A DNA stretch of 64,000 bases, taken from contig CAZRBB010000001.1 of assembly GCA_964598205.1 (NCBI GenBank), positions 156,199-220,198 on the forward strand, in the 5' to 3' direction. Below the pieces are notes generated by a model. That model did no database searches and was not told the origin of the DNA. It saw nothing but the letters and a program-made list of their open reading frames with translations. A program made the position numbers and the translations under genes. Source of the DNA: an uncultured Candidatus Saccharibacteria bacterium (lineage in GTDB: Bacteria; Patescibacteriota; Minisyncoccia; CAIUEV01; JAHKAQ01). The stretch's first letter is position 1. Every line of letters starts with the position of its first letter. Positions 18,459 through 64,000 of the stretch are shown piece after piece.

Positions 18459-19298
18459 TTAACGCAAATATTCTTTATTCCTTAATTTTGGAAAAAAACT
18501 ATTACCAGTCACCACTTTCTTGCCGGTTTTTTCTTCCAGTTCTAGCCGTGCATTTTTAGCTATCTGTCCGCCTCTTTTTGCTGGAACCTTGTTTTCTTTT
18601 AATCCCTTAGCCTTTATTGTTTCTGCTATTTGCCGTGTAGATAATTCAGCGAGAGCGGTAAATACCAGCTCTGCATCCGTTAAATGATCACGCAAATTTC
18701 CCCGTTTTATGTTTTTCAGGGCTTTGTGCTTCTTAATTGTTAAATCGCTCCACTCCTGATGGATAATATTTGTCAAAATAGCGTACTCGTCTTTTTCTTT
18801 GACTTTATTACTTTTCCAATAATCAGTTAACTTATTTCTGATTTCCTGACCCATCATTCGTTGCTGGATCCATTTTTGACTTCGGCCCATCTTTTGCCAA
18901 TAATTGCGCGAACGATTCAGTGCTTTTTCTGGATTGGATATTTCTTGGATTCTTTCATAGCCAACCCTAGCCAACCAAATTTTAATTGGTTCCGCTTTTG
19001 AACTTGGTACGGATTGAATAAGGCGCAATAAATGCTCTGGGCTTCCGGCTAGAATTTTTCTTTTTTTACCATTTTCCCCGATCATTTCTACCTGGGGACA
19101 ATTTGTCCCTAGGTAATTGGCGAGTAGATGATCTCTTTTCCTTAATTTTTTTAAATAATCCGTTGGATTGACGCTGTTAGTAAGCACTTTAATAACATCC
19201 ACAACTGAAAAATACCATTTTTCTTGTTTTTCATTCCAAGCTCGGCGGATTTTTTTACCTTCAAAAATAGCTAATTTTTTTTTATCTTTTTTCATCAC
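18459..19298 (-). CDS. Bro-N domain protein (phage antirepressor-like)
   Basis: N-terminal FEGKKIRRAWNEKQEKWYFSVVDVIKVLTNSVNPTDY fits the Bro-N pattern. Adjacent to tRNA-Ser. Confidence 0.55.
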   Translation of the reverse strand: MMKKDKKKLAIFEGKKIRRAWNEKQEKWYFSVVDVIKVLTNSVNPTDYLKKLRKRDHLLANYLGTNCPQVEMIGENGKKRKILAGSPEHLLRLIQSVPSSKAEPIKIWLARVGYERIQEISNPEKALNRSRNYWQKMGRSQKWIQQRMMGQEIRNKLTDYWKSNKVKEKDEYAILTNIIHQEWSDLTIKKHKALKNIKRGNLRDHLTDAELVFTALAELSTRQIAETIKAKGLKENKVPAKRGGQIAKNARLELEEKTGKKVVTGNSFFPKLRNKEYLR

Positions 19299-19371
19299 GA
19301 TTCAAAATTTAAAACTCTTAAAATCCTATCACACAAATAATAAAAAAGTTTTAAATAAAAAAAGTAAAACT

Positions 19372-19461
19372 TGGCGGAGAGGCAGGGATTTGAACCCTGG
19401 GTACTCTTGCGAGTACACTTGATTTCGAGTCAAGCCCATTCGACCACTCTGGCACCTCTCC
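19372..19461 (-). tRNA. tRNA-Ser (anticodon CGA), long variable arm, CCA encoded
   Basis: Reverse complement folds as GGAGAGG acceptor, anticodon stem-loop CTTGA-CTCGAAA-TCAAG, long variable arm GTACTCGCAAGAGTAC, T-arm CCAGGGTTCAAATCCCTG, and ends CCA. Confidence 0.85.
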
Positions 19462-19552
19462 AAGAAATATTCAACAGATTTAATCTAGCACTATAAAAAT
19501 TAATCGATAAGCATTTAAGAGGAATATCTCGTGTTTTTTAAAGCCAATGTTT

Positions 19553-19675
19553 TTTAAGGAGGCCCCTTGTTCTCTCCTACTAAAGTTTAAGCTTTTTAGG
19601 CAAAAGAGAAAAAGAACAAGGTGGAGCGAGGCCCGGTCGAGCGCGAGCGTACTCCGAAAAAAATATTGGCTTTAA
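19553..19675. repeat. GC-rich palindromic intergenic repeat, family 'GGAGGCYCCTTGTTC...GAACAAGGYGGAGCGAG...CGAGCGTACTCCGAAAAA' (copy A)
   Basis: ~80% identical over ~115 nt to 22268..22376. Contains internal inverted repeats. The 69-aa minus-strand ORF here is a translation artefact. Confidence 0.7.
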
Positions 19676-19757
19676 AAAAGAAACATAGATTTTTAAAAGA
19701 AAAAGCCGAGCGTCTCTTAGAGAGACAATTTGAATAGTTATTGGCCAGTTTCCAAAT

Positions 19758-19831
19758 GCGCGCCCGAGAGGATTTGAACCTCTGATCTCTGGCTTCGGAG
19801 GCCAACGCTCTATCCAGCTGAGCTACGGGCG
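19758..19831 (-). tRNA. tRNA-Arg (anticodon CCG)
   Basis: Reverse complement GCGCCCGTAGCTCAGCTGGATAGAGCG-TTGGC-CTCCGAA-GCCAG...GGTTCAAATCCTCTCGGGCGCG gives a cloverleaf with anticodon loop CTCCGAA. Confidence 0.85.
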
Positions 19832-19922
19832 CAATTGATTATTGTAATCCCTAATCCTAATAAACTGCCATCTATTTTTACCGCTATTTTTTGTTTTTGC
19901 CTAGCTGTTTTAGAAATCAACA

Positions 19923-20040
19923 GGACTTCTCCATTTGGTGTAGTTCAAGGCAAAACCGAGTAAGCGAGCGACGCGTAATTATGTTACGAAGAGCGAGCGA
20001 CGGAGGTTTTAACGAAGAAATGCACCAAATGGAGAAGTCC
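19923..20040 (+). repeat. Structured repeat element copy 1: 18-bp perfect terminal inverted repeats enclosing a conserved 81-nt GC-rich core
   Basis: ggacttctccatttggtg (19923-19940) is the exact reverse complement of caccaaatggagaagtcc (20023-20040). The core is identical to 21515-21596. Overlaps the rlmN stop and its last ~10 codons. Confidence 0.8.
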
Positions 20041-21037
20041 TATTTCCCGCTAATTGACCACAAGCCGCATTAATACTAGTTCCGCGGCTTTTCCGTACAA
20101 CTACCTCTATCTGCAACTTTTCTAATTCTTTCCTAAAAGCCATCACTGTTTCCTTGGAAGCTGGCTTAAAATCACCGACTGGGTTGCCACTTAAAAGATT
20201 GACCATAAACAAGCCACCCAAGCCCTTTTTTAAAAGTCTCCCCAATTCTTGGGCATCGGCAGGGGAGTCGTTTATTCCCAAAAACAAGGCGTATTCAATC
20301 ATTATTTTACGACGCCTGATTTTTAAATAATCGCGCAAAGCTCCTAGAACCTCTCTTGTCGGATTAGTTATTTCTACCGGCATATATCTTTGTCTTTCCG
20401 CACTATTAGAAAAATGCAGGGAGAAAGCTAAATTTACCTGCCAGTCTTCTTGGGTAAAGGCGCGAATTCCTTCTGTAATACCGGCAGTAGAAACGGAAAT
20501 TTTCCTAGCACCAATATTCAAACCCTCTGGATCATTAATTGCTAGAATCGCTTTTTTTACTTCTTCATAATTCAAAAACGGTTCGCCCATTCCCATAAAA
20601 ACCACGCTCGTTATTTTTTGGTTCTCCTTTTTTAATTCGCGCGCCCAAAAAATAAGTTGCAAAAGAATTTCCCAATTAGTTAGGTTTCTTTTGAATCCGG
20701 CCTGACCAGTAGCACAAAAAGTGCAAGCCAATTGGCAACCAGCCGCCACCGAAACACAAACCGAATTGTTGCCTTCACTGCCTTTAATTAAAACTGTTTC
20801 TACTCGTACTCCGTCAAAGGTTAAGACCGCTTTTTGAGTCTGGTTATCCGTATCCGCTTTTTTTTCAACATCAATACTCAATGGCAGATCTTTTCCTAAT
20901 TCTTCTTTTAGTTCCTTGGGCAATACGGAAACTTGTTCCCAAGAATCAAAAAGGGAAACAAAAATAGCGCGCTTAATCTGTGCCACACGGAAGCGGGGAA
21001 GTCGGCTTAAAATATTAACTAGCTTTTCTTGGTACAT
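20009..21037 (-). CDS. rlmN: 23S rRNA (adenine2503-C2)-methyltransferase, radical SAM
   Basis: CQLACTFCATGQ radical-SAM CxxxCxxC, GMGEP, and C-terminal AACGQL motif. 342 aa. Confidence 0.9.
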   Translation of the reverse strand: MYQEKLVNILSRLPRFRVAQIKRAIFVSLFDSWEQVSVLPKELKEELGKDLPLSIDVEKKADTDNQTQKAVLTFDGVRVETVLIKGSEGNNSVCVSVAAGCQLACTFCATGQAGFKRNLTNWEILLQLIFWARELKKENQKITSVVFMGMGEPFLNYEEVKKAILAINDPEGLNIGARKISVSTAGITEGIRAFTQEDWQVNLAFSLHFSNSAERQRYMPVEITNPTREVLGALRDYLKIRRRKIMIEYALFLGINDSPADAQELGRLLKKGLGGLFMVNLLSGNPVGDFKPASKETVMAFRKELEKLQIEVVVRKSRGTSINAACGQLAGNRTSPFGAFLR

Positions 21038-21122
21038 TTTTTAAAAATCAATCAAACAATCAACCTCACCGCAAATCAGAGCTCGGCCTTGCTCTAATAA
21101 ATTCGTGTCGTGTAATTTTAGC

Positions 21123-21458
21123 TTAGGTTAAACGGTAAAGTAGAGAGATAGAAACAACGGCCAGGAATAGCCCCAAAATCTCTATTGGTAAAAGTTGCTC
21201 TTTAAAGTAAAAAACGCTGATTAAGGCAGAAGAAATTATAAAAGTGAGAGTAAAAATAATTCCAGCGTTTAAGAATTCCATTTTTTTAAAAACAAAGAAC
21301 CAACCAAAAACTGAGAAAAAGTAAATTAAACCGGCCACTCCCAGAAAGATCGGTACGGAAAAAACTTGTTTTAACGCCGCTTTCTTTATTAAGAGGTCCG
21401 CAATAACAATCAAGAAGCTAAAAGATAAAATGACCGGTAGGATACTAAATTTTCCCAT
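21123..21458 (-). CDS. Small 4-TM membrane protein (DMT/EamA-like half-transporter?)
   Basis: 111 aa with four hydrophobic helices. Confidence 0.4.
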   Translation of the reverse strand: MGKFSILPVILSFSFLIVIADLLIKKAALKQVFSVPIFLGVAGLIYFFSVFGWFFVFKKMEFLNAGIIFTLTFIISSALISVFYFKEQLLPIEILGLFLAVVSISLLYRLT

Positions 21459-21496
21459 GGCGATTTTTTACTTTTTATGGAACTGTTTGGCTGGGA

Positions 21497-21613
21497 CTTT
21501 GTGTATTTGAATGCAGTTCAAGGCAAAACCGAGTAAGCGAGCGACGCGTAATTATGTTACGAAGAGCGAGCGACGGAGGTTTTAACGAAGAAATGCATTC
21601 AAATACACAAAGT
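21497..21613 (+). repeat. Structured repeat element copy 2: 19-bp perfect terminal inverted repeats enclosing the same 81-nt core as copy 1
   Basis: ctttgtgtatttgaatgca (21497-21515) is the reverse complement of tgcattcaaatacacaaag (21595-21613). Sits immediately 3' of the clpP stop (21618-21620). Confidence 0.8.
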
Positions 21614-21617
21614 TCAT

Positions 21618-22193
21618 TTATTTAATAATTTTATCTATTACGCCATACTTCTTGGCTTCTTCCGCGCTCATGTAGAAATCACGATCAGTGTCTTTTTCTA
21701 ACTGTAATATTTTTTGACCGGTAGTTTGCGCTAAAATTTTATTTAATTTTTCTTTGGTTTTTAAAATGTGCCTAGCAGAAATTTCTACATCAGAAGCTTG
21801 ACCTTCGGCACCACCCATTACCTGATGAAGCAGGACTTCTGAATTAGGAAGAGCCAGTCTTTTTCCTTTGCAACCAGCAGAAAGCAGTACCGCCGCCATG
21901 CTAGCAGCAATACCCACGCAAATTGTGGATACATCACATTTTACATAATTCATGGTATCAAAAATTGCCAAACCAGCAGTAACGCTTCCGCCAGGAGAAT
22001 TAATGTAAAGCTTAATATCTTGTTCCTTGTTTTGGCTTTCCAAGAAAAGAAGTTGGGCAATAATAGTATTGGCAGTAGGGTCGTCAATAGCACCAGAAAG
22101 AAAAACAATTCTTTCTTTTAAGAGGCGAGAATAAATATCGTAAGCTCGCTCTCCGTATTGTGATTTTTCAATAACAGTAGGTATAAGATTCAT
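21618..22193 (-). CDS. clpP: ATP-dependent Clp protease proteolytic subunit
   Basis: [32 protein letters not shown] (catalytic Ser) and HQVMGG (His) motifs. Confidence 0.95.
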
Positions 22194-22267
22194 AAAATTA
22201 AATTAAAATATTATTCGATAAGTTTAGTATATCCTCTTGACTGGCATCATTTCCAAGCAGATGTCTT

Positions 22268-22376
22268 TAGAGGAGGCTCCTTGTTCCCGCCCATTAAGCT
22301 CCAAGCTTTTTAGAGAGAACAAAACAGGAACAAGGCGGAGCGAGACCCGGTCGAGGTCGAGCGTACTCCGAAAAAG
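22268..22376. repeat. GC-rich palindromic intergenic repeat (copy B of the family at 19553..19675)
   Basis: gaggaggctccttgttcccgcc ... ggaacaaggcggagcgagacccggtcgaggtcgagcgtactccgaaaaag. The ORF 22310..22495 is an artefact. Confidence 0.7.
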
Positions 22377-22425
22377 AATATCGTCTTAGGGAAGGCTCTC
22401 TGTGTTAACTTGTGGTCGCATTGCT

Positions 22426-22493
22426 GATTCTTGGGAAGACTCGCGTAGGCAGACTCAGAGCCTTGTCTGCCCAAGCGAGTCTTCCCAAGAATC
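22426..22493. repeat. Nested perfect hairpin immediately 3' of tig
   Basis: 19-bp perfect inverted repeat gattcttgggaagactcgc/gcgagtcttcccaagaatc with an inner 7-bp inverted repeat ggcagac/gtctgcc. Confidence 0.7.
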
Positions 22494-22501
22494 AAGCGCT
22501 T

Positions 22502-23797
22502 TTAAACCTCCAAGAATTCTTTCTTTAACCAAGCAATCACCTTCTGTTTACTCAAAAAGTTTTCGGCATAGGCTTTGACTCGCTCTGGATCTATATCTTT
22601 AGTTTCGGCCCCGCTTTGACGGAATTCGTTGAGCAATTTTTCTGTTTCTTTTTCTATTTCTTCTTTTGTGGCGCTGATTTCTTTTTCTTTGCCGATGGTC
22701 ATTAATGCTAGTTCGGTCTTAACTCTTTTTTTGGCATCATCGTGCCAATCACCTAAAAGAGCCTTTTTGGTTGTTTTTACTTTTTCCAAATAAGTTTCCA
22801 AGGAAAGTCCCATATGGGTAAGCTGGTTTTCTAGTTCCGAAAGCATTTTATTTTTTTCTTCTTCCACAAAAACATTGGGAATTTCCGTCTTGGTTTCTTC
22901 GGCAATCGTCTTTATTAAATCCTCTAATGATTCATGAATCATTTTTGCTTCCTTTTCGTTTCTTAGATTATTTCTTAGGCTTTCTCTTAAATTTTCTGCA
23001 CTGGTAAAACGACCCAGTCCCTTAGCAAAGTCATCGGTTACTTCTGGTAGCTCTTGTTCCTGTACTAATTTCATTAAAATCTCGAACTCTCCTTTTTTAC
23101 CTTTTAGATTGTCGTCGTAATAATCTTTAGGAAAATCAAGAGAAAAATTTTTCTTTTCTTCGGCTTTTAATCCAATTAGTTGATCTTCAAAGCCGGGAAT
23201 AAATTTTTCTTCGCCAATAACCAGCGGATGATTCATGCTAGAACCACCCTCCACCGGCACTCCAGAGAAAGAAAGCTTAAAGTTTATTTCTACCAAGTCA
23301 CCCTTCTTAGCTTCACGATTCACAGTAACTGTTTTGGCTCGTGATTTTCGCAGATGGTCTAAGACTTTAGTTGTTTCTTCTTCTGTAATTTTAATTTCTT
23401 CTAAATTTGGTTTTTTAAATTTTAATTTTTTAAGATCTGGTAGTGTTATTTCGGGGAAAACACTTATTCGGGCTTCGTAAATCAAACCGGTTTCTGGGGA
23501 ATTTTCTTTAACATCTATTTTAGGGGAACCAAAAATATCTAGCTTTTTCTCCAAAAGAGCTGCTAAAAATGTTTTATTGATTGCTGTTTCTAAGACTTCT
23601 TTTTTAAAACCTTCTTCTCCGGCCACTTTTTTCACTGCTTCTACGGTAGCCTTGCCAGGGCGGAAACCAGGGAGAGGGTTTTTCTTGGAATAAATCAACG
23701 CCGCTTTTTTGGCAAAAGAAGCTAGTTCCTGTTTAGAAATGTTTATTTCTAAAATAATTTCTGATTGAGGTAAATCTTTTAGGGTAACTTTTGGCAT
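22502..23797 (-). CDS. tig: Trigger factor
   Basis: N-terminal ribosome-binding region with GFRPGKA motif. FKBP-like middle and C-terminal chaperone arm domains. 431 aa. Confidence 0.85.
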   Translation of the reverse strand: MPKVTLKDLPQSEIILEINISKQELASFAKKAALIYSKKNPLPGFRPGKATVEAVKKVAGEEGFKKEVLETAINKTFLAALLEKKLDIFGSPKIDVKENSPETGLIYEARISVFPEITLPDLKKLKFKKPNLEEIKITEEETTKVLDHLRKSRAKTVTVNREAKKGDLVEINFKLSFSGVPVEGGSSMNHPLVIGEEKFIPGFEDQLIGLKAEEKKNFSLDFPKDYYDDNLKGKKGEFEILMKLVQEQELPEVTDDFAKGLGRFTSAENLRESLRNNLRNEKEAKMIHESLEDLIKTIAEETKTEIPNVFVEEEKNKMLSELENQLTHMGLSLETYLEKVKTTKKALLGDWHDDAKKRVKTELALMTIGKEKEISATKEEIEKETEKLLNEFRQSGAETKDIDPERVKAYAENFLSKQKVIAWLKKEFLEV

Positions 23798-26165: not shown

Positions 26166-26231
26166 CTTGAGTTTAATGGGAAAGGGGGTGACTGTCAATA
26201 AAGCTAGGAATTTTTTAATAAAAATTGAAAA

Positions 26232-26289
26232 ATAACCCAATAACTATTTTAAACAGAATTGAGTTGCTTCTGTTTAAAATAGTTATTGG
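26232..26289. repeat. 23-bp perfect inverted repeat (hairpin/operator-like) just 3' of the ArsP-like gene
   Basis: cccaataactattttaaacagaa - ttgagttgc - ttctgtttaaaatagttattggg. Confidence 0.7.
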
Positions 26290-26318
26290 GTTATTTCCTC
26301 TTCTACATAAAAATGCTC

Positions 26319-30613: not shown

Positions 30614-30866
30614 CTATTTTTTTTAATTTTGACTCATTTTCTCACAAATTTTAAGATTTGTCTTTTATTTAATCCCAGGAGATAAATTTTTAATTACGAA
30701 TTTTGAGTTTTGATTAAAATTCTAATTTTGAATTTTAAAACAATTTAGAATTTTGAGTTTCCAATTTTATTCAAAATTAAAAACTCAAAATTAAAAATTA
30801 AGGGTAGCGTTTTCAATTCTGATTGGATTCGCTACAATTAAAAAATAACAGTAAGTATTCAAAATC

Positions 30867-36622: not shown

Positions 36623-36870
36623 TTTAGATTCTTTTTATTTTCTCTTTCGTTTCTTTTTAAACACTTTTGTCTAAGCTGAGCCTAGTTCTTTTTCATTAAC
36701 AGGAACAATCATAGCATATTTAAAAATCAGTCTAAAGTCGGCTAATTACGAATTATGTTCCGTTTTTTCTCGGAAGCAATGTTCCCAGAGGAAGCTTCTT
36801 GTTCCCATGAAAGAGACCAGAGGAGTATCCATTGGGTAGACTAACGAGGAGGCTCCTTATTCCCACGAAA

Positions 36871-36938
36871 GAGAGTAGAGGAGTATCCATTGGGTAGACT
36901 AAGAGCCATGTCTACCCAATGGATACTCCTCTACTCTC
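36871..36938. repeat. 29-bp perfect inverted repeat (10-nt loop) in the smc/response-regulator divergent intergenic region, preceded by two ~57-bp direct repeat units
   Basis: gagagtagaggagtatccattgggtagac (36871-36899) is the reverse complement of 36910-36938. The upstream units at ~36786-36900 share GGAGGCTCCTT(G/A)TTCCC with repeats A and B. Confidence 0.8.
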
Positions 36939-37001
36939 TAAGCCAGACCCTTGACCTAGAAAAATAAAAATGCCAGCTTTACCCGTTAATTATTTTTTTC
37001 T

Positions 37002-38951: not shown

Positions 38952-41273
38952 TTAATTAACTTCAATTATCTTTTCCAAAAAAGCTAAAGGAAGAATTGCT
39001 GGTTTTTCGGCGGCAGCTTGATGATAAATTACAGTAGAAGGAGTAAGTGCTGGAAGAGTATTGGCTTCTATTAAAATTACTTCTTTTGTTTGGAGATTAA
39101 AAAAAAGATCCAAGCGAGCATAACCAGAAATACCCAAGGCCGAAGCCGCTTTTTGGGTAAGGTCTTGAACAATTTTTAAATCACGAGAAGAAAACCATTC
39201 CTCTGGTGGTGGGGTAAAATTAATACCAGTTCCACCTTGAAATTTTTCTTCTAAAGAAAGAATTTTACCAGAGGCGATTGTTTGGCTAGGAGTTAAAGAT
39301 TTTAATTGATTACCTTGGCCCAAAACTCCTACCGAAAGCTCAATCCAGCCATGAATCTTTTTTCGGTGAAGTTTCTTTCCTAAAATAGCAACCGAATCGG
39401 TTAGAATAAATTTTTCGGCTATTGCTTCAGAGCAAAAACTTTTAGGCAACTCTACGGCTGCGGGATGATCCTTGAGTAGCCCACCAGGGATACAGATTTT
39501 ATTGCTAAGAAGATGATCAAGATAAATTTTTAATTCAGCAGCACTGTTGATTTTAGCAACACCAGCAGAACAGCCATCAGACCGTGGTTTTAAGACTAAT
39601 TCTTTTGCATTAAGTTGGCTGGTAATTTTTTTCCAAAGGGCCTGGGAATCATTTTTTCCACCGAGCTTTATTAAGAACTTGGGGAGACTTTTAAGTTTTG
39701 GGTGGTTTAATTCAGTAATAACTCGCCCGGTTTCCCATTTATCCATTCCTAGTTGAGAAGCCTTAGCACCAGATCCATTAAAGGGAACTTTTAATTGAGC
39801 AAGCTCCGACTGAAAAGTACCATCTTCTCCAGTGCCACCATGGAGCGCTAAAAAAATAAAATCAAATTCTTTTGCCAGTTTTTCTAAAGTAGTTTTTTGA
39901 GGTAGAAAAAGTGATTCGCTTTTAAAATCAGCAGGGATGCCAAGTTCCCAAAGAGTCTTTACTCCCATTTCTTGGAATTTCTTTATTTTTTTGCTGTTAG
40001 TTTTGCAAATCAAATAATCGATTTCTTCTACTGTATGGTGTAGAGCAAAAAAATAAGGGATTCGCCAAAACTCTCCTTTTGGTGAAAGAAAAATAGGCTC
40101 CGGCTTAAACTTGGAAGAAGATTTTAATTTAATAAAAACATTAGTTCCCGAAAGAAGCGAGATTTGCCGCTCTGCTGTTTCTCCTCCAAAAATTACCGCT
40201 ACTTTCTTTTTCTTTATAGGCTCTCCCTTCTTTGAACTACCATTTTTAATGGTTCGCTCCGCCGCTCTTTGGGCTAAATAGTTCAAAAGCTCAGCGTGAT
40301 TTAATCCCAAAAAAGCGGCTTGTCTAAAAATAAAACTATTTTGCTCCATGCCGGTAATCGGATTTATGTCGCTAAACCAAATTTTATTATCTTCCAAAAG
40401 CCAGCCATCAAACCGTGCGTAATCTCGTAAGTTAAACAGTGAGAAAATTTTTTTAGCTTCTTCTTGGATTTTTTGAATAACCGAATCGGAAAATCGGGGA
40501 GGAGTAAAAAAATGAATATGATCGCTGGCTAAATATTTTTTTCTAAAACTAAAGAAAGAATCACTTCCCTTTTTAAAACCGATTTCGGTGGGGATAAGCG
40601 GGATTGGTTCTCCGTTTTTATTTTCTAAAATAAGGATTGTAAATTCTTTTCCTGGGCAAAATTTTTCCAAGACGGCTTCGTCCCCATAATTAAAAACATT
40701 CACTAACTTTGACTTTAATTCAGAAGGAGAATCTAAAAACTCTACTCCCAAAGAAGAGCCGGACCGATTGGGTTTTAAAACATAACGACCCTTTTTAATT
40801 TTTGGTAGGACTCCTCCTTTTTTTATTAATTCCGTGCCCCAAGTATAAAAACCGTTTGCTTTTAATTTTTTTTGGGCTAGGTGTTTATCAATAGTTTCCT
40901 GGGCCCCTTTTTCTTTTACACCAACAAAATTTACCTTGGCATTAGTCAGTATCTTTTGGATTTCTCCATCTTCACCAAACTCGCCGTGCATAATTGGCCA
41001 AACCAAGTCTTGAGATCCTAAATATTTTTTAAACTGGGAAGTGGTTAATTTTTGGCCAATCTTTTTGATTTTGAATTCAAAATCAAAAACGGTATTGGAA
41101 TAAAGCTGGAAAGAGGGGATAAGGTAAGGAGTCTTTTGGGAATCAAAATAAACAATAGAAATTAAAAAGTGTTCTTTGTCTAAATTATCTAAAACCGAAC
41201 GAGTAGAATTTAGAGAAATGCTTTTTTCTGGTGATGGCCCTCCACAAAGTAGGGCAGTTTTTATTTTAGGCAT
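38952..41273 (-). CDS. ddl: Fused tandem D-alanine--D-alanine ligase (two complete Ddl-like ATP-grasp modules in one 773-aa protein)
   Basis: Module 1: ALLCGGPSPEKSISL, HGEFGEDGEIQ, KPNRSGSSLGV, ARFDG...INPITG. Module 2: VAVIFGGETAERQISL, HGGTGEDGTFQ, KPRSDGCSAGV, ARLDLFF...EANTLPA. Confidence 0.8.
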   Translation of the reverse strand: MPKIKTALLCGGPSPEKSISLNSTRSVLDNLDKEHFLISIVYFDSQKTPYLIPSFQLYSNTVFDFEFKIKKIGQKLTTSQFKKYLGSQDLVWPIMHGEFGEDGEIQKILTNAKVNFVGVKEKGAQETIDKHLAQKKLKANGFYTWGTELIKKGGVLPKIKKGRYVLKPNRSGSSLGVEFLDSPSELKSKLVNVFNYGDEAVLEKFCPGKEFTILILENKNGEPIPLIPTEIGFKKGSDSFFSFRKKYLASDHIHFFTPPRFSDSVIQKIQEEAKKIFSLFNLRDYARFDGWLLEDNKIWFSDINPITGMEQNSFIFRQAAFLGLNHAELLNYLAQRAAERTIKNGSSKKGEPIKKKKVAVIFGGETAERQISLLSGTNVFIKLKSSSKFKPEPIFLSPKGEFWRIPYFFALHHTVEEIDYLICKTNSKKIKKFQEMGVKTLWELGIPADFKSESLFLPQKTTLEKLAKEFDFIFLALHGGTGEDGTFQSELAQLKVPFNGSGAKASQLGMDKWETGRVITELNHPKLKSLPKFLIKLGGKNDSQALWKKITSQLNAKELVLKPRSDGCSAGVAKINSAAELKIYLDHLLSNKICIPGGLLKDHPAAVELPKSFCSEAIAEKFILTDSVAILGKKLHRKKIHGWIELSVGVLGQGNQLKSLTPSQTIASGKILSLEEKFQGGTGINFTPPPEEWFSSRDLKIVQDLTQKAASALGISGYARLDLFFNLQTKEVILIEANTLPALTPSTVIYHQAAAEKPAILPLAFLEKIIEVN

Positions 41274-52319: not shown

Positions 52320-52392
52320 GTCCCGGTAGCTCAGTGGATAGAGCAACAGCCTTCTAAGCTGTGGGCCGCAGGTTCAAGTCCTGCCCGGGACG
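52320..52392 (+). tRNA. tRNA-Arg (anticodon TCT)
   Basis: GTCCCGG-TA-GCTC-AGTGGATA-GAGC-A-ACAGC-CTTCTAA-GCTGT-GGGCC-GCAGG-TTCAAGT-CCTGC-CCGGGAC-G. Confidence 0.85.
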
Positions 52393-52396
52393 CAAG

Positions 52397-52433
52397 TAAA
52401 AAAAGAATGACCAATTTGGTCATTCTTTTTTTA
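52397..52433 (+). terminator. Rho-independent terminator after tRNA-Arg
   Basis: aagaatgacc-aattt-ggtcattctt hairpin flanked by A-run and T-run (bidirectional-looking). Confidence 0.7.
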
Positions 52434-52444
52434 CTTTTGACTAG

Positions 52445-52720
52445 CGCAGGACTTGAACACGAAGGGGGTCGGGGAAACTGTAGTTTCCCCGTTGGGGGTG
52501 ACAGCGAGTCCCGTTGAAAACGGGACGAGCGCCAGAGGGCGGAAGCCCTATGGAGAGCGAGCAAAGCGAGCGAGTGAAAGTCCTGCCATTAATATCTTGA
52601 ACGGGGATGGGGTCGGGAAACCGGGAGGTTTCCCGTGGCGGAGGAATCGGAACCGATGGGTTCCGAAGCGGAGCGAACCGCAGCGGAGCGGAGGTGAGTG
52701 AGCAGTGAAATTCCTGCCCG
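52445..52720 (+). ncRNA. GC-rich structured tandem element (two ~135-nt units), candidate structured RNA or tRNA-derived repeat; identity unknown
   Basis: Both units run from 'cttgaac' to 'gtgaaa(g/t)tcctgcc'. Each carries two strong hairpins at equivalent positions with different sequences (ggggaaactgtagtttcccc vs gggaaaccgggaggtttccc; cccgttgaaaacggg vs ggaaccgatgggttcc). All six reading frames are open, which is typical of non-coding GC-rich DNA. Confidence 0.4.
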
Positions 52721-52893
52721 AGGATATTCAAAATATTTAATATACTATAAAAATCTTCGAATCAATCATTGAATAATTTGTTATTGATCTTTTACAAAAT
52801 AAAGACCGCCAGTATTTGCCACTGGAAAGCAATGAATCATAAAGTTCCTAGTACACTAGGAACTAGGAACTTTTTTTGTTATGATATAAGCAC

Positions 52894-53887
52894 TATGAAA
52901 ACATCTAAGAAAATACTTGAATATATAGCGAAGAATGGTCACGCAAGCGGAAAGGAGCTTGTTGATAGTCTTGGTGATATTACCCCGAGAGCCGTGCGTA
53001 AGCAGTTAAAAAATCTTTTAGATGCTGGCGAGCTAAAAAAGATTGGGCGTCCGCCAAAGGTTTTCTATTCTTTAGTTCCCAAGATAGTAATGAGCACGCT
53101 TACGCTCCGAAGAGATTTTTTAAATGTGGATTTGAAAACACGCAATAGTATTGATAGTCAATATCTCTACATTACGCCTGCCGGTGAGATGAAGCTAGGC
53201 TGGGATGGATTTGTGGCATGGTGCGAAAAGACGAAACAGAATCCGGAAAAGACAGCGAAGGAATACTTATCAACTCTTCGGAAGTGTGATGTTTTTTTTA
53301 GAAATGGACTGATTGATGGGATGGGAAAAATCCAAAGCACATTCAAAGATGTATACCTTGACCAACTTTTCTATCTTGATTTTTATAGTATTGAGCGATT
53401 TGGAAAGACAAAAATCGGTCAGTTGCTTTTGCATGCCAAAAACAGTCAGGATCGGAAACTGATGAAACCATTGATTGATGATATCCGACCAAGGGTTGTG
53501 GCGTTGATAAAAAAGTATTCAATCGAAGGCGTTTTGTTTGTTCCTCCAACCGTGAGGCGTGAAATTCAGATTATGAAAGAAATCGAAAGAAACCTAAAAC
53601 TTCCCATAAGCACACTTGTTGTTGCAAAAGTGAAAACACAAATTGCAGTTGCGCAGAAAACGCTTTTAAAACTTGAGGATCGAATAGAAAATGCAAAGAA
53701 AACGATTGTTGTTGAGGATACTAGGACGTATGGCAATATTCTTCTAATAGATGATGCTGTTGGATCAGGATCGACTCTAAACGAGACCGCCGCTCAGATT
53801 CGAAAAAAGGGTTTGTGTCGTGGGAAGATTATTGGATTAGCGATTGTGGGAAGTTTCAAAGGATTTGATGTTATTAGTGAGATATAA
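52894..53887 (+). CDS. Winged-helix DNA-binding domain fused to a C-terminal type I phosphoribosyltransferase (PRTase) domain
   Basis: N-terminus KKILEYIAKNGHASGKELVDSLGDITPRAVRKQLKNLLDAGELKKIGRPPKVFYSL (wHTH). C-terminus VVEDTRTYGNILLIDDAVGSGSTLNETAAQI (PRPP-binding loop). Start set at ATG 52894, preceded by tatgatataa. Confidence 0.6.
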
Positions 53888-53950
53888 CCAAAATCTCTGA
53901 TCGCAATTATGCTATCTTATAATTAATTTTTAGAGTGCTAATCCTCACTA

Positions 53951-55069
53951 ATGTATTACAAAAACCATTTAGCCGAATCTAATCTAAAGAATACATTACA
54001 AGAAGAACTAGCAAAAAAAGACAAAGAACTAGCTGAGTTAAAAGCTGAAAAAGATCGTAATTTTGCAGAGCAATTAGCAAAAAAGGAATCCGAGATTGCT
54101 GAAATGAAATCAAAAATCACCAATGCTGAAACGGAGAAAAAATTAGCTGTCACACAAGCAGTCAATTCCGTAGAAAAAGAAAGGGATGATTTTAAAATCA
54201 AACTGCAAAGCAAAGAACATGAAATGCAACTCTGTGAAGTTTCATTAAAAGACAAATATGAAAATGAATTGAAATTAAAGGACGAAATGATTGAACGATA
54301 CAAAGACATGAAATTAAAACTCAGCACGAAAATGATCGGTGAGACACTTGAGCAACACTGTGAAACTGAGTTTAACAAAATTCGTGCCACGGCTTTTCCA
54401 AAAGCCTATTTTGAAAAAGATAATGATCCCAAAACTGGCAGCAAGGGTGATTTTATCTATCGCGAAACTGATGAAGACAAAAACGAAATCATTTCTATAA
54501 TGTTTGAAATGAAAAATGAAAGTGATGAAACCGCCACTAAAAAAAGAAATGAAGATTTTTTGCACGAGCTTGATAAGGACCGTACCGAGAAAAAATGCGA
54601 GTATGCTGTTCTTGTTACGTTCTTGGAAGCCGAAAATGAATTATATAACACCAGCATTGTTGATGTCTCTCATAAATACCCCAAAATGTATGTAGTTCGA
54701 CCACAATTTTTTATCCTAATCATTACACTACTCCGCAACGCAGCCATGAATTCTCTAAAATACAAAGCCGAACTGGCATTGATGCGAACACAGAATATTG
54801 ATGTTACTACTTTTGAAGGCCAATTAAATGATTTTCGCGAATCATTTGGCAGAAATTTCAGATTGGCATCCGAAAAGTTTAAAAACGCCATTGGTAGTAT
54901 TGATAAATCGATTGAGCAACTTCAAAAGACCAAAGAGAGTCTTTTGCGATCTGAAGATAATCTGCGCCTGGCTAATAATAAAGCTGATGATTTGACAATA
55001 AAGAAGTTGACACGTGGGAATTCTACGATGAAGGCAAAGTTCGAAGAGCTTCCCGATAAAAAGGAGTAA
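53951..55069 (+). CDS. DUF2130-family protein (coiled-coil N-terminus plus predicted PD-(D/E)xK-like C-terminal core)
   Basis: [62 protein letters not shown]...EYAVLVTF matches the DUF2130 conserved block as I recall it. The D...E.K spacing is suggestive of a nuclease fold. Confidence 0.6.
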
Positions 55070-55306
55070 GCCACTTGAACTCGGAACATAATTCACCCCT
55101 AACCATCCTCCCATCTCTCCAAACCCCAAAATAAATTTAATTTAGACGCTTGCCCACCATAGCTTTAGCGAAGGAGGGATAGCTCGTCAAAAAAAAGAAT
55201 ATCTCCGTTAATTCCATAATGAGTCTTATTATGGAATTAACATTTCCAATATTGGAATCATAATATCTACTTCAAACCTTCCCATCTTTTGACCTAATCT
55301 CTCCAA

Positions 55307-55489
55307 ATGCTAACCAAAATTTTAAAAAAATTAACTCTAAGGAAAGAACAGAAAGAATCTCCCCGCAAATCTTTTTTAGAGATGCCCATAAGAGACCAAA
55401 GGAAAATCATCAAAAAAGCGGTAGAAGAATCCAACAAGGAACAACGCAAACTCGTAGAAAGATACGAAAATAAATTTGGCCACGCTTAG
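55307..55489 (+). CDS. Hypothetical small basic protein (possible regulator of the downstream Fic gene)
   Basis: 60-aa K/R/E-rich ORF with no motif. Confidence 0.2.
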   Translation: MLTKILKKLTLRKEQKESPRKSFLEMPIRDQRKIIKKAVEESNKEQRKLVERYENKFGHA

Positions 55490-55564
55490 GGAAAAAGTTG
55501 CAAAGCACAGAGCTAGGGGAGTAGAAAAGAGATTTCAATGCTATGCACAAGCAGTGTGCAGACA

Positions 55565-55594
55565 TTGACAAATATGCACAAAAAACAGTAAAAT
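55565..55594 (+). promoter_or_regulatory. Sigma70-like promoter (TTGACA-18-TAAAAT) with overlapping TGCACA/TGTGCA palindromes upstream of the Fic gene
   Basis: ttgacaaatatgcacaaaaaacagtaaaat, with inverted repeats gcacaagcagtgtgc and atgcacaaa...tttgtgcat around it. Confidence 0.5.
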
Positions 55595-55625
55595 TTGTGC
55601 ATAACAAAAATAATCCAAAAACACT

Positions 55626-56714
55626 GTGTTTAATCGCAATATTCCCCACAATCAACTGCCATTACTTCCACCCGATTTTAATTTCAACGATGTGGATCTT
55701 TTAAAGTTGGTGAACAAAGCCAATAACTCTTTGTTCGAACTAAAAGGAATGGCTAATGTTTTGCCCAACAGCGGAATTTTAGTTTCCCCATTGACGATTC
55801 GTGAAGCGGTTGCCAGTAGTGGAATTGAAAATATTAACACAACTGTGGCGGAAGCCCTTAAAGCAGATGTTATTTATGAAAAGTCAGAACTCTCCGGAGC
55901 CGAAAAAGAAATCCTAAGGTATCGGGACGCTCTTCGTGAGGGATATAAAATGCTTAAGAAGAATGAGTTTTTAAACACGAATAGTTTTGTTGAAATTCAA
56001 TCAGTATTGGAGCCGAATAAAAAAGGTATTAGGAAAATTCCCGGAGTTGCAATTAGGAATTCAAAAACCGGCGAAGCCATTTATACCCCGCCGGAAGGAC
56101 ACGATGTTATATTAAAAAAACTCAAAAATTTTGAAGATTATTTTAATGATCAAAAAAACTTTGATGACATTGATCCACTAGTACGCATGGCGGTGATGCA
56201 TTATCAATTTGAGTCCATTCATCCATTTTTAGATGGTAATGGAAGAACTGGTAGAATAATTATGATTCTCTATTTGGTGCTAACAAAGCGTTTGGAATTG
56301 CCAATTTTATTCTTAAGCAAATATATCCTAGAAAACCGAGATGAATATTATAAAAAACTACGCGGAGTTACGGAAAACAAAGAATGGCTAAATTGGGTTT
56401 TTTATATCCTTCGGGGTATTGATATGCAAGCGCAGGAAACAAGAAAAAATATTTCACAGATCAAAAAATTAATGGAAGAATACAAAGAAATTTCTCTAAA
56501 AGAGGGCGTTCATATGACATCTCGCATGCTGGATTATCTTTTTTCAAATCCGTTTTATTCGCAAAAAAAGATGGCGGAGAGTCTCAGTATCCATAGGAAT
56601 ACTGCTGCAAAATATTTTCAAGAGCTAGAAAAATCAAAAATTGTACAGAAATTCAAGCACAAGCAAGGGTATATTTATTATAATCAAGCATTTCTTAATA
56701 TCATGAGCTATTAG
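55626..56714 (+). CDS. fic: Fic-family protein (class II: N-terminal inhibitory motif plus Fic core), C-terminal wHTH
   Basis: HPFLDGNGRTGR Fic active-site motif. N-terminal SSGIEN fits the (S/T)xxxE(G/N) auto-inhibition motif. Confidence 0.85.
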   Translation: MFNRNIPHNQLPLLPPDFNFNDVDLLKLVNKANNSLFELKGMANVLPNSGILVSPLTIREAVASSGIENINTTVAEALKADVIYEKSELSGAEKEILRYRDALREGYKMLKKNEFLNTNSFVEIQSVLEPNKKGIRKIPGVAIRNSKTGEAIYTPPEGHDVILKKLKNFEDYFNDQKNFDDIDPLVRMAVMHYQFESIHPFLDGNGRTGRIIMILYLVLTKRLELPILFLSKYILENRDEYYKKLRGVTENKEWLNWVFYILRGIDMQAQETRKNISQIKKLMEEYKEISLKEGVHMTSRMLDYLFSNPFYSQKKMAESLSIHRNTAAKYFQELEKSKIVQKFKHKQGYIYYNQAFLNIMSY

Positions 56715-56961
56715 AGTTTTCGATGTAACTTTAAGAATGAATTCTTAAAAATTGTTTTTGGTATAAATAAAACATTCAATCTTGAAAGGGAAAGAGGTGT
56801 GCGATTCCCCAAAGCCATCTTAACTTGGCTGGGGTAAAGTATGCTGTGCAAACCCTCTCAAAACCCCTTATAATTCGGTACAATTACCGTATTAAGTTCA
56901 GACAAACCCTTATTTTGGGATGCTGATCCCGCCAAAATTAATCTCAATAAGAACAATCAAA

Positions 56962-57933
56962 ATGGCCAAAAAAGAAATTATTATCTATCAATCAAAAAAC
57001 GGTGCTCTTAGGTTTAGGGGAGATTTTAAAAAGGAGACTATTTGGGCGAGCTTGCAACAAATTGCCAATCTTTTTGAAACCGACAAATCCGGTATCTCTC
57101 GCCATATTCAAAATATTTATCAAACTGGTGAATTGGAACCAAAGGCAACTGTTGCAAAAATTGCAACAGTTCAAACCGAGGGGAATCGAACAGTAAAAAG
57201 GGAAATTGAGTATTACAATTTGGATCTGATTCTTTCTGTAGGATATCGTGTCAATTCCAAAACAGCCACGAAGTTTCGCCAGTGGGCAACCAAGACACTG
57301 CGCGAGCATATTGTTACGGGCTACACCATCAACAAAAAGCAAATCGCTAAAAATTACGCTCAATTTTTACAAGCAGTTGAATCGGTAAAAAAGCTGTTGC
57401 CGGCCGGCGGGCAAATCGAGGTAGGAGACACGCTGGAGCTGGTTAAAATGTTTGCCAATACTTGGATGTCTTTGGATGCGTACGATAAGTCTTCCCTGCC
57501 CAAATCCGGCTCAACCAAAAAACAAGCCAAAATAACGGCGGAAGAATTAACGGAAGCAATCGCGGAATTAAAGAGGGACTTACAAAAGAAAAAGGAAGCT
57601 ACGGAACTTTTTGCCCAAGAACGCCAAAAAGAAGCGATTGCCGGTATTGTGGGGAATGTATTTCAATCGGTTTTTAGTCGCGACGCTTACGAAACGCTGG
57701 AAGAAAAATCGGCGCATCTGCTTTACTTTTTTGTAAAAAATCATCCGTTCGTTGACGGCAACAAAAGAAGCGGAGCGTTTGCGTTTGTATGGTTTTTAAA
57801 TAAAGCTGGGCTTTTACAAAAAGACAGAATGTCTCCCGAAGCGCTGACTGCGCTTACGCTTTTAGTAGCTGAAAGCAATCCTAAAGACAAAGACAAAATG
57901 ATCGGCCTAGTGTTGCAACTGCTTAAGAGGTAA
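56962..57933 (+). CDS. RhuM-family N-terminal domain fused to a Doc/Fic-fold domain (death-on-curing-like)
   Basis: N-terminus IIIYQSKNGALRFRGDFKKETIWASLQQIANLFETDKSGISRHI (RhuM). C-terminus NHPFVDGNKRSGAF (Doc-type HxFx(D/N)GNKR). Start at ATG 56962. Confidence 0.8.
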   Translation: MAKKEIIIYQSKNGALRFRGDFKKETIWASLQQIANLFETDKSGISRHIQNIYQTGELEPKATVAKIATVQTEGNRTVKREIEYYNLDLILSVGYRVNSKTATKFRQWATKTLREHIVTGYTINKKQIAKNYAQFLQAVESVKKLLPAGGQIEVGDTLELVKMFANTWMSLDAYDKSSLPKSGSTKKQAKITAEELTEAIAELKRDLQKKKEATELFAQERQKEAIAGIVGNVFQSVFSRDAYETLEEKSAHLLYFFVKNHPFVDGNKRSGAFAFVWFLNKAGLLQKDRMSPEALTALTLLVAESNPKDKDKMIGLVLQLLKR

Positions 57934-58109
57934 AGATAACAAAAGCGATTAGCTACATTCTCTTTCCCCTAAATGTCGGCCAGAGAAAAGTTTTCACTGT
58001 CAATGAAAACAATCCCAGAATAGTTTTCAATATAAATGAAAACATTTGCTTTAAAAAAGTCATCAGGAAAAAGCACCATGGTTGATAGTTGACTGTAAAC
58101 TGTAAACTA

Positions 58110-58604
58110 ATGAAAAATAAATTAAGAAAATCAGTTATTGTGACTTTTTTCCTCCTGATGTTATTAAGCGTTTCCGTATCTTTATTTAATTTTTGGCAAA
58201 TAAAAAATCTAAAGAGAACTAGCAACGCAAGGATAGAAGAGCTGGAATACTTCTACAATGATTTTAGGGAGATTTCTAGAAAAGAACCAAAGAAGAATAT
58301 ACCGGAAGAAATTTCTCCGGAAAACACAGAAAAAGCCTGGGCAATTCATGAGCAGGATAACGAAAACTTAAAAGAAAGATCGCTGAAACTTTCTCCAGAC
58401 GGAACAAAGAAGGCTTATTTTCAGGAAAAGTTTATCTCAGATATTAAAGATATTGGGAATACCGATTATATTTCTTTAATCGTAGAGAAAAAAAACGGGG
58501 ATAATGAAATCTATTTCAAATTCCACCGCCCAAACCCTATCAAAACCCCATATAATTTGGTACAATTACCACATCAAGCAAGAGTAAAACTGCAAAATAC
58601 TTAA
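58110..58604 (+). CDS. Hypothetical signal-anchored protein
   Basis: N-terminal TM helix. The 3' end overlaps a conserved 40-nt intergenic motif, so the real stop may be earlier. Confidence 0.35.
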   Translation: MKNKLRKSVIVTFFLLMLLSVSVSLFNFWQIKNLKRTSNARIEELEYFYNDFREISRKEPKKNIPEEISPENTEKAWAIHEQDNENLKERSLKLSPDGTKKAYFQEKFISDIKDIGNTDYISLIVEKKNGDNEIYFKFHRPNPIKTPYNLVQLPHQARVKLQNT

Positions 58605-58622
58605 TATTTTAGCGTTCAGAAA

Positions 58623-58874
58623 ATGACCCAAGACGATCTAGGAAAATATTTCTGGGATGTTGATGTTAAAGAGATTGATTTTGGCAAACATGCCCGTTTT
58701 GTTATTGAAAGAATCCTAAATTTTGGTAACGAAGAATCTGTTAGATGGCTACGAAAGCGCTATTCCGACAATGAAATAAAAGAGGTCGTTTTAAAGAGTA
58801 GAAATTTAAATAAAAAAGCTCGTAATTTTTGGAACATCATTTTTCAAATTAATTTTTCTAAGAACAATGGATAA
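58623..58874 (+). CDS. Small protein upstream of, and overlapping, the AbiEii-like nucleotidyltransferase; putative cognate antitoxin
   Basis: 83 aa. 8-nt overlap with the downstream gene, typical of TA pairs. Family not recognised. Confidence 0.4.
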   Translation: MTQDDLGKYFWDVDVKEIDFGKHARFVIERILNFGNEESVRWLRKRYSDNEIKEVVLKSRNLNKKARNFWNIIFQINFSKNNG

Positions 58875-59511
58875 TAATCTTCATTTGGAAGTTTTGCCGG
58901 AAGATCAGAGGCTATTATTACAAAAATTAGCAAAGGAAGACTGGCTTGGGGATTTTTATTTGGCCGGAGGAACGGCCTTGGCCTTGCAAATAGGACACCG
59001 CGAATCTATTGATTTTGATTTCTTTTCTAAAAAAGAATTTGGGCATCAAGAGATTATTCAAAAGCTGGAGAGAATCGGTTCCTTTGAATTGTTTCAGGGA
59101 GATGAGGGCACTATCAATGGTCGGCTTTCAGAAATTCGGATTTCTTTTTTTTACTACAAGTACAAAATCGTAGAAGATCCAATAGTTTATGAAAAATTAA
59201 ACATTGCCAATAAGCTTGATATTGCTCTTATGAAATTAGAAGCCATCTCGGGCCGTGGTAGTCGTAAGGATTTTATTGACCTTTATTTTCTCTTAAGAGA
59301 GTTTTCCTTAGAAAGACTATATTCTGATTATCCTCTAAAATACGGCCAAGGATTGGATAATAAATATCACTTATTAAAATCTCTAGCCTATTTTGAAGAC
59401 GCGGAAAAAGAACCTATGCCAAAAATGCTCATTTCTATTGATTGGGAAAAAATAAAATCGGCAATCTTAAAAGAGGTTGGCACAATTGAACAAAACATTT
59501 TAAAAGAATAA
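58867..59511 (+). CDS. Nucleotidyltransferase, AbiEii/DUF1814-like toxin family
   Basis: FYLAGGTALALQIGHRESIDFDFF matches the GGTAL...HR.S.DiDf motif of PF08843-type nucleotidyltransferases. Confidence 0.65.
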   Translation: MDNNLHLEVLPEDQRLLLQKLAKEDWLGDFYLAGGTALALQIGHRESIDFDFFSKKEFGHQEIIQKLERIGSFELFQGDEGTINGRLSEIRISFFYYKYKIVEDPIVYEKLNIANKLDIALMKLEAISGRGSRKDFIDLYFLLREFSLERLYSDYPLKYGQGLDNKYHLLKSLAYFEDAEKEPMPKMLISIDWEKIKSAILKEVGTIEQNILKE

Positions 59512-63646: not shown

Positions 63647-64000
63647 TTTTTTTAAATAAAAATCATGTTCACTTTTTATAGCACATCTTTATTCAATTAT
63701 GAATTACGAATTTTGAATTTCGAAATAATTTAGAATTTAAAATTCGTAGTTCAATCGAAATTTCTAATTAACCACCAGCATAATTTAAATTCAAGAGGAG
63801 ACGCTCAATTTTTTCCGGCGAAAAATTTCGCTAGAATATTGGAAAAATTTTCGGAACCGAAAATATTTTCAAAGAGCATGCTCAACGGTTAATTCAAAAC
63901 AGACAAAATTTCACCTAGAGTCTTATTGAGGTTGTATTTAGAATTGGTAAATTTTTTTGAAGAAAATGAAATTCATAATAGTGACGAGGGTGAAAATATT

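Follow-up and report, generated by a model that had tools for sequence, protein, structure and literature searches.

Hairpin repeats that are co-transcribed at the 3′ ends of genes include REP/BIME, REPINs, ERIC, Correia/NEMIS and Rickettsia RPE. Families of the REP/ERIC type are present in tens to hundreds of copies with conserved arms and a less conserved centre, and they can provide a stop codon or serve as RNase III or stability elements, while the hairpins of REPINs are maintained by compensated changes. The intercistronic R sites of phage T7 and lambda sib are hairpins of another kind, acting in RNase III processing or as 3′ retroregulators.

Structured repeats have also been described from the TIGR-Tas systems, for which CPR bacteria are the only non-viral hosts with TIGR arrays (Faure et al. 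2025, PMC12045711; Xu et al. 2026, bioRxiv 10.64898/2026.09.09.750476). Their stem-loop tigRNAs contain two single-stranded spacers of 8-12 nt flanked by short box C/D motifs, and what separates the spacers is a loop of 9 nt or, for the CPR TasR clade, a 5-bp hairpin (PMC12045711; bioRxiv 10.64898/2026.09.09.750476). Stem-loop tigRNAs have a variable palindromic stem with a CUU motif at its base, only the nucleotides near the boxes or the top being conserved, and the stems of stem-loop arrays likewise diverge between units on one precursor (PMC12045711; bioRxiv 10.64898/2026.09.09.750476).

Here we compare with these systems a hairpin module that was found directly downstream of clpP in a stretch of 64,000 nucleotides, called the window throughout.

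Genomic context

The source of the window is an uncultivated Patescibacteria (CPR) bacterium. The best non-self match of its RlmN is only 59% identical, and the homologues are named Patescibacteria, Parcubacteria and related groups. The module is present in two copies, EL2 at clpP and its sister EL1 at rlmN, and the order on the minus strand is tig-clpP-EL2-eamA-rlmN-EL1-tRNA-Arg, followed by tRNA-Ser:

22502-23797, minus strand: tig
21618-22193, minus strand: clpP, 191 aa, upstream of EL2 on the transcribed strand (Pfam CLP_protease, E 2.5e-81)
21618-21620, minus strand: stop codon of clpP (TAA)
21494-21615, unstranded: EL2, the complete hairpin module of 122 nt (sequence, folds of both strands, inverted repeat I10, covariance model score of 125 bits)
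21123-21458, minus strand: eamA, encoding an EamA-like small membrane protein of 111 aa
20009-21037, minus strand: rlmN, 342 aa, its 3′ end running into EL1 (Pfam Radical_SAM; named RlmN homologues)
19923-20040, unstranded: EL1, the sister copy of 118 nt
19758-19832, minus strand: tRNA-Arg

A gene for RNase III, rnc (Ribonuclease_3 and dsrm domains), is found on the same contig, 3-4 kb outside the window. No genes for transposases, integrases, reverse transcriptases, Cas or Nop-domain proteins were detected in the window and ~10.5 kb of extra flank (Pfam lists). Compared with the two nearest relatives (L082, 5683-7453; L084, 10001-11533), in which rlmN-tRNA-eamA lies downstream of dnaK, the eamA-rlmN pair of the window (20009-21458) is circularly permuted, with copies of the element at both junctions.

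Several other features of the window are worth recording. The Bro-N/DinD-like protein encoded at 18459-19298 (minus strand) is 73-81% identical to proteins of many CPR classes, its hosts including Uhrbacteria, Magasanikbacteria, Vogelbacteria and Collierbacteria, whereas the RlmN of the same genome has no match above 59%; it is either unusually conserved or else horizontally spread. A protein of 773 aa (38952-41273, minus strand) contains both the N and the C domain of D-Ala-D-Ala ligase twice, apparently as a tandem fusion. Within 52320-52460, tRNA-Arg(TCT) precedes a hairpin of 17 bp with A7/T7 on its sides, which makes it a bidirectional terminator, and beyond this the T-arm of the tRNA is repeated over 13 nt in inverted orientation. 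The genes further downstream (52769-59511), for an HTH protein, DUF2130, two Fic proteins and AbiEii, may make up a defence island next to this tRNA gene.

Limits and copy number of the module

An exact search for the 80-nt core returned two matches, 19943-20022 and 21516-21595, with none in 100 shuffles. By blastn, 83 nt are 100% identical (19942-20024 and 21515-21597), and when 19939-20024 is compared with 21512-21597 a single T/C difference is found, leaving 85 of 86 positions identical (repeat family D8). Outside the hairpin, the similarity between the copies is not significant (p 0.16 and 0.13), and the comparison of both flanks gave neither an extension of the repeat nor a conserved promoter. 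Since the identity of the core and the homology of the arms end at the base of the hairpin and the flanks are dissimilar, the repeat unit is the whole hairpin of 118-122 nt. The copies lie 1,573 bp apart with two genes between them, and a check of coding potential found no ORF common to both.

A covariance model built from the core and 8 stem pairs matches only EL1 and EL2 when run on the window, its flanks, three loci from the nearest relatives and three loci around Bro-N homologues. In ~75 kb of the genome, neither this model nor blastn detected a third copy, even a degenerate one. Contigs of the organism from seven samples are all 100% identical to the window and include neither an empty site nor strain variation. 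With all contigs identical and no relatives outside, the comparative evidence is limited to the two copies, and with only two copies in ~75 kb, mobility is inferred from one duplication. The module matches nothing known and is a real, orphan, two-copy structured element.

One short-read contig from Logan (L004) is delimited exactly by the cores of EL2 and EL1, and another (L090) ends inside a different hairpin, at 36870-36939. Because short-read contigs end inside such repeats, these elements fragment assemblies and could be under-represented in MAGs.

Closing stems

The two arms of EL2 are specific to this copy:

21494-21511, unstranded: left arm, GGACTTTGTGTATTTGAA, of which GGACTT and ATTTG are common to EL1 and the rest is different (arm alignment)
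21598-21615, unstranded: right arm, TTCAAATACACAAAGTTC, ending 2 nt before the stop codon of clpP

The closing stem of EL2 comprises 22 pairs (21494-21515 with 21594-21615), namely 20 perfect pairs (21496-21515 with 21594-21613) followed by G21495.T21614 and G21494-C21615, while that of EL1 comprises 20 pairs including one T.G. Aligned with each other, the arms of the two copies are identical at 15 of 22 positions with two gaps (p~3.5e-4 against random 22-mers of the window), the common positions being GGACTT at the base, ATTTG in mid-stem and TG.A at the top, and the ends of the element read GGACTT...AAGT(C/T)C. On this alignment the stems of EL1 and EL2 are to be taken as homologous rather than unrelated. 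The original prediction had described the same 81-nt core in both copies, closed in EL2 by a different, perfect stem of 19 bp. The identical core is real and measures 83 nt; the perfect stem is present as well, though slightly longer than stated, and its sequence does differ between the copies, but as a diverged version of the same stem.

Divergence is concentrated in the arms. Four substitutions changed both arms together (C-G to T-A twice, C-G to G-C and G-C to A-T), and the further differences are two indels of a whole pair each and two changes of one arm only, with G.T as the result, against no change across the 83 positions of the core. As the differences between the stems are compensated, pairing is selected and sequence is not. 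The conservation pattern is inverted, with an invariant 86-nt apex above covarying stems, and this is what is unusual about the family.

The fold of EL2 as RNA reaches an MFE of -54.4 on the plus strand, where shuffles give -26 (z -8.9), and of -42.7 on the minus strand, where they give -19.5 (z -7.3). Each strand clearly exceeds its shuffles, with z from -6.3 to -8.9 as RNA or DNA. All three non-Watson-Crick pairs of the stems are G.U on the plus strand and C.A mismatches on the minus strand.

Conserved apical domain

The part of EL2 above the copy-specific arms is organised as follows:

21512-21597, plus strand: conserved apical domain, 86 nt, with its counterpart at 19939-20024
21536-21546, plus strand: first AGCGAGCGACG direct repeat, on the 5′ strand of the internal loop
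21547-21561, plus strand: apical hairpin CGTAAT-TAT-GTTACG, of 6 bp with T.G on the plus strand and 5 bp on the minus strand
21565-21575, plus strand: second AGCGAGCGACG direct repeat, on the 3′ strand of the internal loop

Read on the plus strand, the domain contains the helices TGYA/TGCA (TGCA/TGCA in EL2), TTC/GAA and AAAACC/GGTTTT, and a pseudo-symmetric internal loop of 16x16 nt in which each strand carries one AGCGAGCGACG and which is topped by the apical hairpin. The flanks of the repeats are pseudo-symmetric too, with ACCGAG or ACGAAG before and CG after, as seen in two identical copies only. Placed antiparallel, the AGCGAGCGACG copies give alternating G-C and tandem G.A pairs over nine positions in a register read from the sequence; the GC steps of this pairing are present in the fold predictions, and the tandem G.A pairs arise from the direct repeats on the plus strand only. 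All 4 sites of GCGAGCGACG in the window (≤1 mismatch) are within the two elements.

As RNA, the apex folds with -22.3 kcal/mol on the plus strand (z -2.5, a value equalled by 2 of 200 shuffles) and with -12.0 on the minus strand (z -0.1), and as DNA neither strand beats its shuffles (z +0.4 and +0.8). The plus strand of the apex is 65% A+G, and its GC content is 46.5% versus about 37-38% locally. The structure of the apex, the G.U pairs and the tandem G.A pairs all being on the plus strand, the best-structured strand is the one antisense to the clpP and rlmN mRNAs. This predicted bias is suggestive rather than strong, as only three wobble pairs and a modest z-score bear on it.

Position at gene ends

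The position immediately 3′ of clpP was confirmed: EL2 starts 2 nt after the stop codon, its first paired base being the third nucleotide after the TAA. The predicted start 5 nt after the stop is also correct for the stem as then drawn, whose first base (21613) is the fifth nucleotide after it. At the other end, the start codon of eamA is 36 nt downstream of EL2 on the minus strand.

EL1 does not follow its gene but overlaps it. Beyond ...AACGQLAGN the reading frame of rlmN crosses into the element, where it continues with RTSPFGAFLR up to a TAA within the core (20009-20011), such that the right arm and part of the core of EL1 encode the last 10 codons and the stop codon of rlmN. About 60 RlmN homologues end 2-12 residues after CGQL, none of them with a similar tail. 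Since the homologues end earlier and without such a tail, the arm of EL1 arrived as part of the element, displacing the former stop codon of rlmN, and the extension by 10 codons reads as an insertion-like footprint. The opposite origin, in which the arms would derive from the target gene, was rejected because RTSPFG has no counterpart in the 60 homologues.

Uninterrupted helices of at least 19 bp are found at the 3′ ends of 4 of the 53 genes of the window, i.e. the ArsP-like gene, tig, clpP and rlmN, and all four belong to one co-directional string.

A role as a terminator or a processing signal had been proposed for EL2. As an ordinary rho-independent terminator of clpP, the element would offer a strong hairpin directly after the stop codon. 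However, on the minus strand the stem is followed by CCAGCCAAACAGUUCC, giving a tail of CCAGCCAAACAG without a U-tract, and the loop formed by the apical domain is 70-80 nt long. Moreover, eamA begins 36 nt downstream with no recognisable promoter between, and the canonical hairpin-and-U terminators that do exist in the window, after tRNA-Arg(TCT) (52394-52430) and at 26230-26296, look different; a terminator scan reported nothing at EL2. With no U-tract on the transcribed strand, EL2 is not a canonical terminator, and we regard this explanation as extremely unlikely. The terminator half of the proposal was therefore not borne out, the missing U-tract, the closeness of eamA and a core that is better folded only on the plus strand all speaking against it, whereas the processing half agrees with the explanation that we tentatively favour below, the stem being of sufficient length to have an effect in the mRNA.

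The hairpin at 26230-26296 pairs perfectly over 29 bp around a loop of 9 nt. It lies 23 nt past the stop codon of the ArsP-like permease gene, its tail on the minus strand is U-rich, and it resembles a canonical terminator of unusual length.

Search for relatives

No Rfam 15 covariance model, those of 6S, ribozymes, HEARO/omega RNAs and Y RNA included, matched the element at the gathering score, nor was there any match at E≤10 within 19300-22600. In the GTDB species genomes, the pattern AGCGAGCGACG N14-22 AGCGAGCGACG occurred at 77 loci, all of them unrelated GC-rich tandem repeats. A stricter two-repeat pattern had 0 matches in the JGI metagenomes, where a 21-mer of the 3′ core gave one chance match within a coding region, and three patterns had 0 matches in IMG/VR. 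None of 5.8 billion proteins shares words with two open frames of the core, a search meant to catch copies absorbed into called genes. In the nearest relatives, whose RlmN is 52-59% identical, the 3′ regions of rlmN carry a tRNA and AT-rich sequence and the element is absent, and three loci around close Bro-N/DinD-like homologues gave no match to the covariance model. Since it has no similarity to IS elements and blastn found no match in the phage and plasmid collections, the element is not a generic IS fragment, which had been one of the objections foreseen.

Known kinds of element were also considered and rejected. A 6S-like RNA does not fit, the element being too short and without an Rfam match. 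A replication landmark of the dif or oriC type was discarded as GC skew follows gene orientation, and the similarity of TTATGTTA to dif comes without the 11-6-11 layout. A K-turn was discarded as the tandem G.A pairs abut a helix without the 3-nt bulge. The two elements form a sequence family that is new but belongs to a familiar general type, the hairpin repeat at the 3′ ends of genes.

Other structured repeats in the window

A second structured repeat is present in two copies, 19534-19679 between tRNA-Arg and tRNA-Ser and 22250-22380 between tig and clpP, whose identity over ~126 nt is 79%. Its features are a conserved stem, CCTTGTTC/GAACAAGG, and a segment rich in GC, GGAGCGAG...GAGCGTACTCC; no Rfam family matches it, and its motif GAGGAGGCTCCTT(G/A)TTCCC recurs at 36788 and 36846.

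Two hairpins of 30 bp, at 22425-22494 and 36870-36939, have the common apex GNAGAC-T[AC]AGAGCC[AT]T-GTCTNC and different lower stems, each of them fully paired, which is the same pattern as in EL1 and EL2. The former lies 8 nt after the stop codon of tig; the latter lies in a divergent promoter region and has its left arm duplicated in tandem (units 36788-36902). With this second hairpin pair, which again combines a conserved apex with a variable stem, the process behind the pattern may be general in this genome.

AT-rich palindromic intergenic repeats of the AATTTCTAATTTTGAATTT type are found at 2704-2804, 30685-30801 and 63700-63763 (families D1/D4 and I1/I3), and similar repeats lie downstream of rlmN in the relative L082.

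Discussion

The explanation we favour is that of a copied hairpin module that is co-transcribed with clpP-eamA-rlmN and acts as an RNase III-type processing or 3′-protection signal. EL2 would be one of two paralogous copies of a self-contained module of ~120 nt that was copied within this genome, the unit copied being exactly the hairpin and both landings falling on the stop-codon regions of co-oriented genes. Transcribed within a polycistronic minus-strand RNA, the module would form an intercistronic or 3′-end stem-loop, the 20-22-bp stem of which may be a substrate for double-strand-specific processing by RNase III and/or a block to 3′ exonucleases. Divergence of the stem sequences would be tolerated or even favoured by selection, as each hairpin of the shared RNA could then fold locally without cross-pairing, whereas the invariant 86-nt apex would be under sequence constraint, perhaps because a factor binds it, because copying requires it or because the copies undergo gene conversion. 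What we infer here is that the module is co-transcribed, that it serves processing or stabilisation, and why the stems diverged.

The limits of the repeat, the compensated changes of the stem, the footprint in rlmN, the GC content of the core and the missing U-tract all favour this explanation, as do the clustering of gene-end helices in one string, the presence of rnc and a second hairpin pair with the same pattern. For an RNase III site in particular, a near-continuous stem of 20-22 bp is available on both strands and rnc is in the contig. Against it, the plus strand, which is antisense, is the better-structured one, and a simple processing or stability hairpin needs no invariant 86-nt apex. 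Our confidence stays somewhat below the balance of probability, the main reason being the strand asymmetry of the apex, which points in the opposite direction.

Perhaps the module is purely selfish, a MITE-like miniature element or a single-strand hairpin moved in trans by a transposase, which has no host function, needs its hairpin only for its own mobilisation and is found at gene ends because insertions are tolerated there. The identical cores, implying a recent copy, the unit being the hairpin, a GC content foreign to the region, the overlapped and replaced stop codon of rlmN, the breaking of short-read assemblies inside both copies (L004 being bounded by the cores) and the absence from the rlmN 3′ regions of the nearest relatives would all be accounted for. 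Yet there is no target-site duplication, the conserved terminal inverted repeat is only 6 bp, ~75 kb contains no transposase and just two copies by covariance model and blastn, and phage, plasmid, viral, genome and metagenome collections gave no matches. Above all, recent transposition should give identical arms, while 7 of 22 stem pairs differ with pairing kept. Recent transposition alone explains the copying of the hairpin and the invariant apex while leaving the 7 divergent stem pairs unaccounted for. The stems are explained if a functional hairpin diverged in the ordinary way, but the invariant apex then needs strong constraint or gene conversion. A wholly selfish nature seems unlikely to us. 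Mobility of a different sort would be implied if the copies were attC-like sites of site-specific recombination, folded as single-stranded DNA and bounding a mobile eamA-rlmN cassette. Two direct copies do flank exactly eamA-rlmN, in an order circularly permuted relative to the rlmN-tRNA-eamA of the nearest relatives, and like attC they are imperfect palindromes (~60-140 nt) located directly after or overlapping the preceding stop codon, with a variable but paired stem and one strand favoured. Unlike attC, however, they have no R″/R′ core sites, as the RYYYAAC and GTTRRRY boxes are missing from the ends, and their centre is conserved where that of attC varies. Neither an integrase nor any other recombinase is encoded in ~75 kb, the core as DNA is no more stable than its shuffles, and the flanking clpP and rlmN are housekeeping genes. 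Since the relatives are only 52-59% identical, differences in synteny are expected anyway, and a recombination site is hardly credible here.

A further alternative takes the strand asymmetry at face value, with the plus strand encoding a structured small RNA from two paralogous genes that are convergent with clpP and rlmN, and the apex binding a symmetric protein dimer. The core is structured only as plus-strand RNA, the G.U and tandem G.A pairs occur only there, and the strand is purine-rich. The geometry can be likened to that of the stem-loop tigRNAs of CPR bacteria or, in a looser sense, to box C/D-like guide RNAs: in agreement with the published units, the loop strands are 16 nt long, which fits 3+11+2, the apical stem has 5-6 bp, and both closing stems begin GGA-CUU. 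U-rich sequence follows both stems on the plus strand (AUUUAUUU and UAUUU). Several observations run counter to this. The CUU base is present on both strands, the stem being palindromic, and is thus uninformative about strand; the repeat unit contains no promoter, as the flanks are dissimilar, and no consensus promoter lies directly upstream; the window has no GCGAGCGACG site outside the elements; the would-be spacers are identical between the copies and between the halves of each copy, unlike guides; no CCA/UG or CUU/UG boxes stand beside the repeats on either strand; and the copies are 1.5 kb apart with no tandem array. By the Pfam lists of called genes and by PDB sequence searches, ~75 kb contain no tas gene and none of the Nop or IS110 type, and when phmmer and a profile of 7 published Tas proteins were run against 513 six-frame ORF segments of the ~75 kb, the best E was 0.13. 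A plus-strand small RNA is a doubtful explanation in our opinion, as improbable as a purely selfish element.

If the processing or protection signal is the right explanation, a lineage-specific small hairpin repeat punctuates an operon of a Patescibacteria member. This would be a modest addition to what is known of mRNA processing signals, in a group whose experimental RNA biology is almost nil.

Comparison with known systems

The likeness to the stem-loop tigRNA units of the CPR TasR clade lies in the Patescibacteria host, the palindromic closing stem that varies between units and is conserved towards its top only, the GGACUU/CUU at the stem base and the two pseudo-symmetric single-stranded segments of ~15-16 nt with a 5-6-bp hairpin between them. 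The module departs from TIGR-Tas in having no tas gene in ~75 kb and no tandem arrangement of units, invariant and mutually identical "spacers", no recognisable box C/D, a much longer closing stem and extra conserved helices. It is very unlikely, in our estimation, that the elements would be orphan, dispersed, TIGR-like or box C/D-like plus-strand hairpin RNAs whose loop is read by a symmetric dimer encoded elsewhere. Were they so, the hairpin RNAs could be released at the CUU base, and the complex could act as a fixed-specificity guide or as a decoy for a palindromic target. If the resemblance is real, guide-like RNAs would exist away from tas loci.

Compared with repeats of the REP/ERIC type, EL1 and EL2 are similar in being hairpin-forming, ~100-130 nt long and located at or in the 3′ ends of genes. 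They differ in copy number, with two copies only, in having an invariant centre with varying arms, and in the absence of a target-site duplication and of an associated RAYT or transposase. Unlike the T7 R sites and lambda sib, they carry a long invariant apical domain, and their best-structured strand is the antisense one. In common with those sites, they have stems of at least 20 bp with internal loops, lie between cistrons and lack a U-tract, and the prediction for EL2 and EL1 is that, as with T7 R sites and lambda sib, the upstream message would keep a protective 3′ stem.
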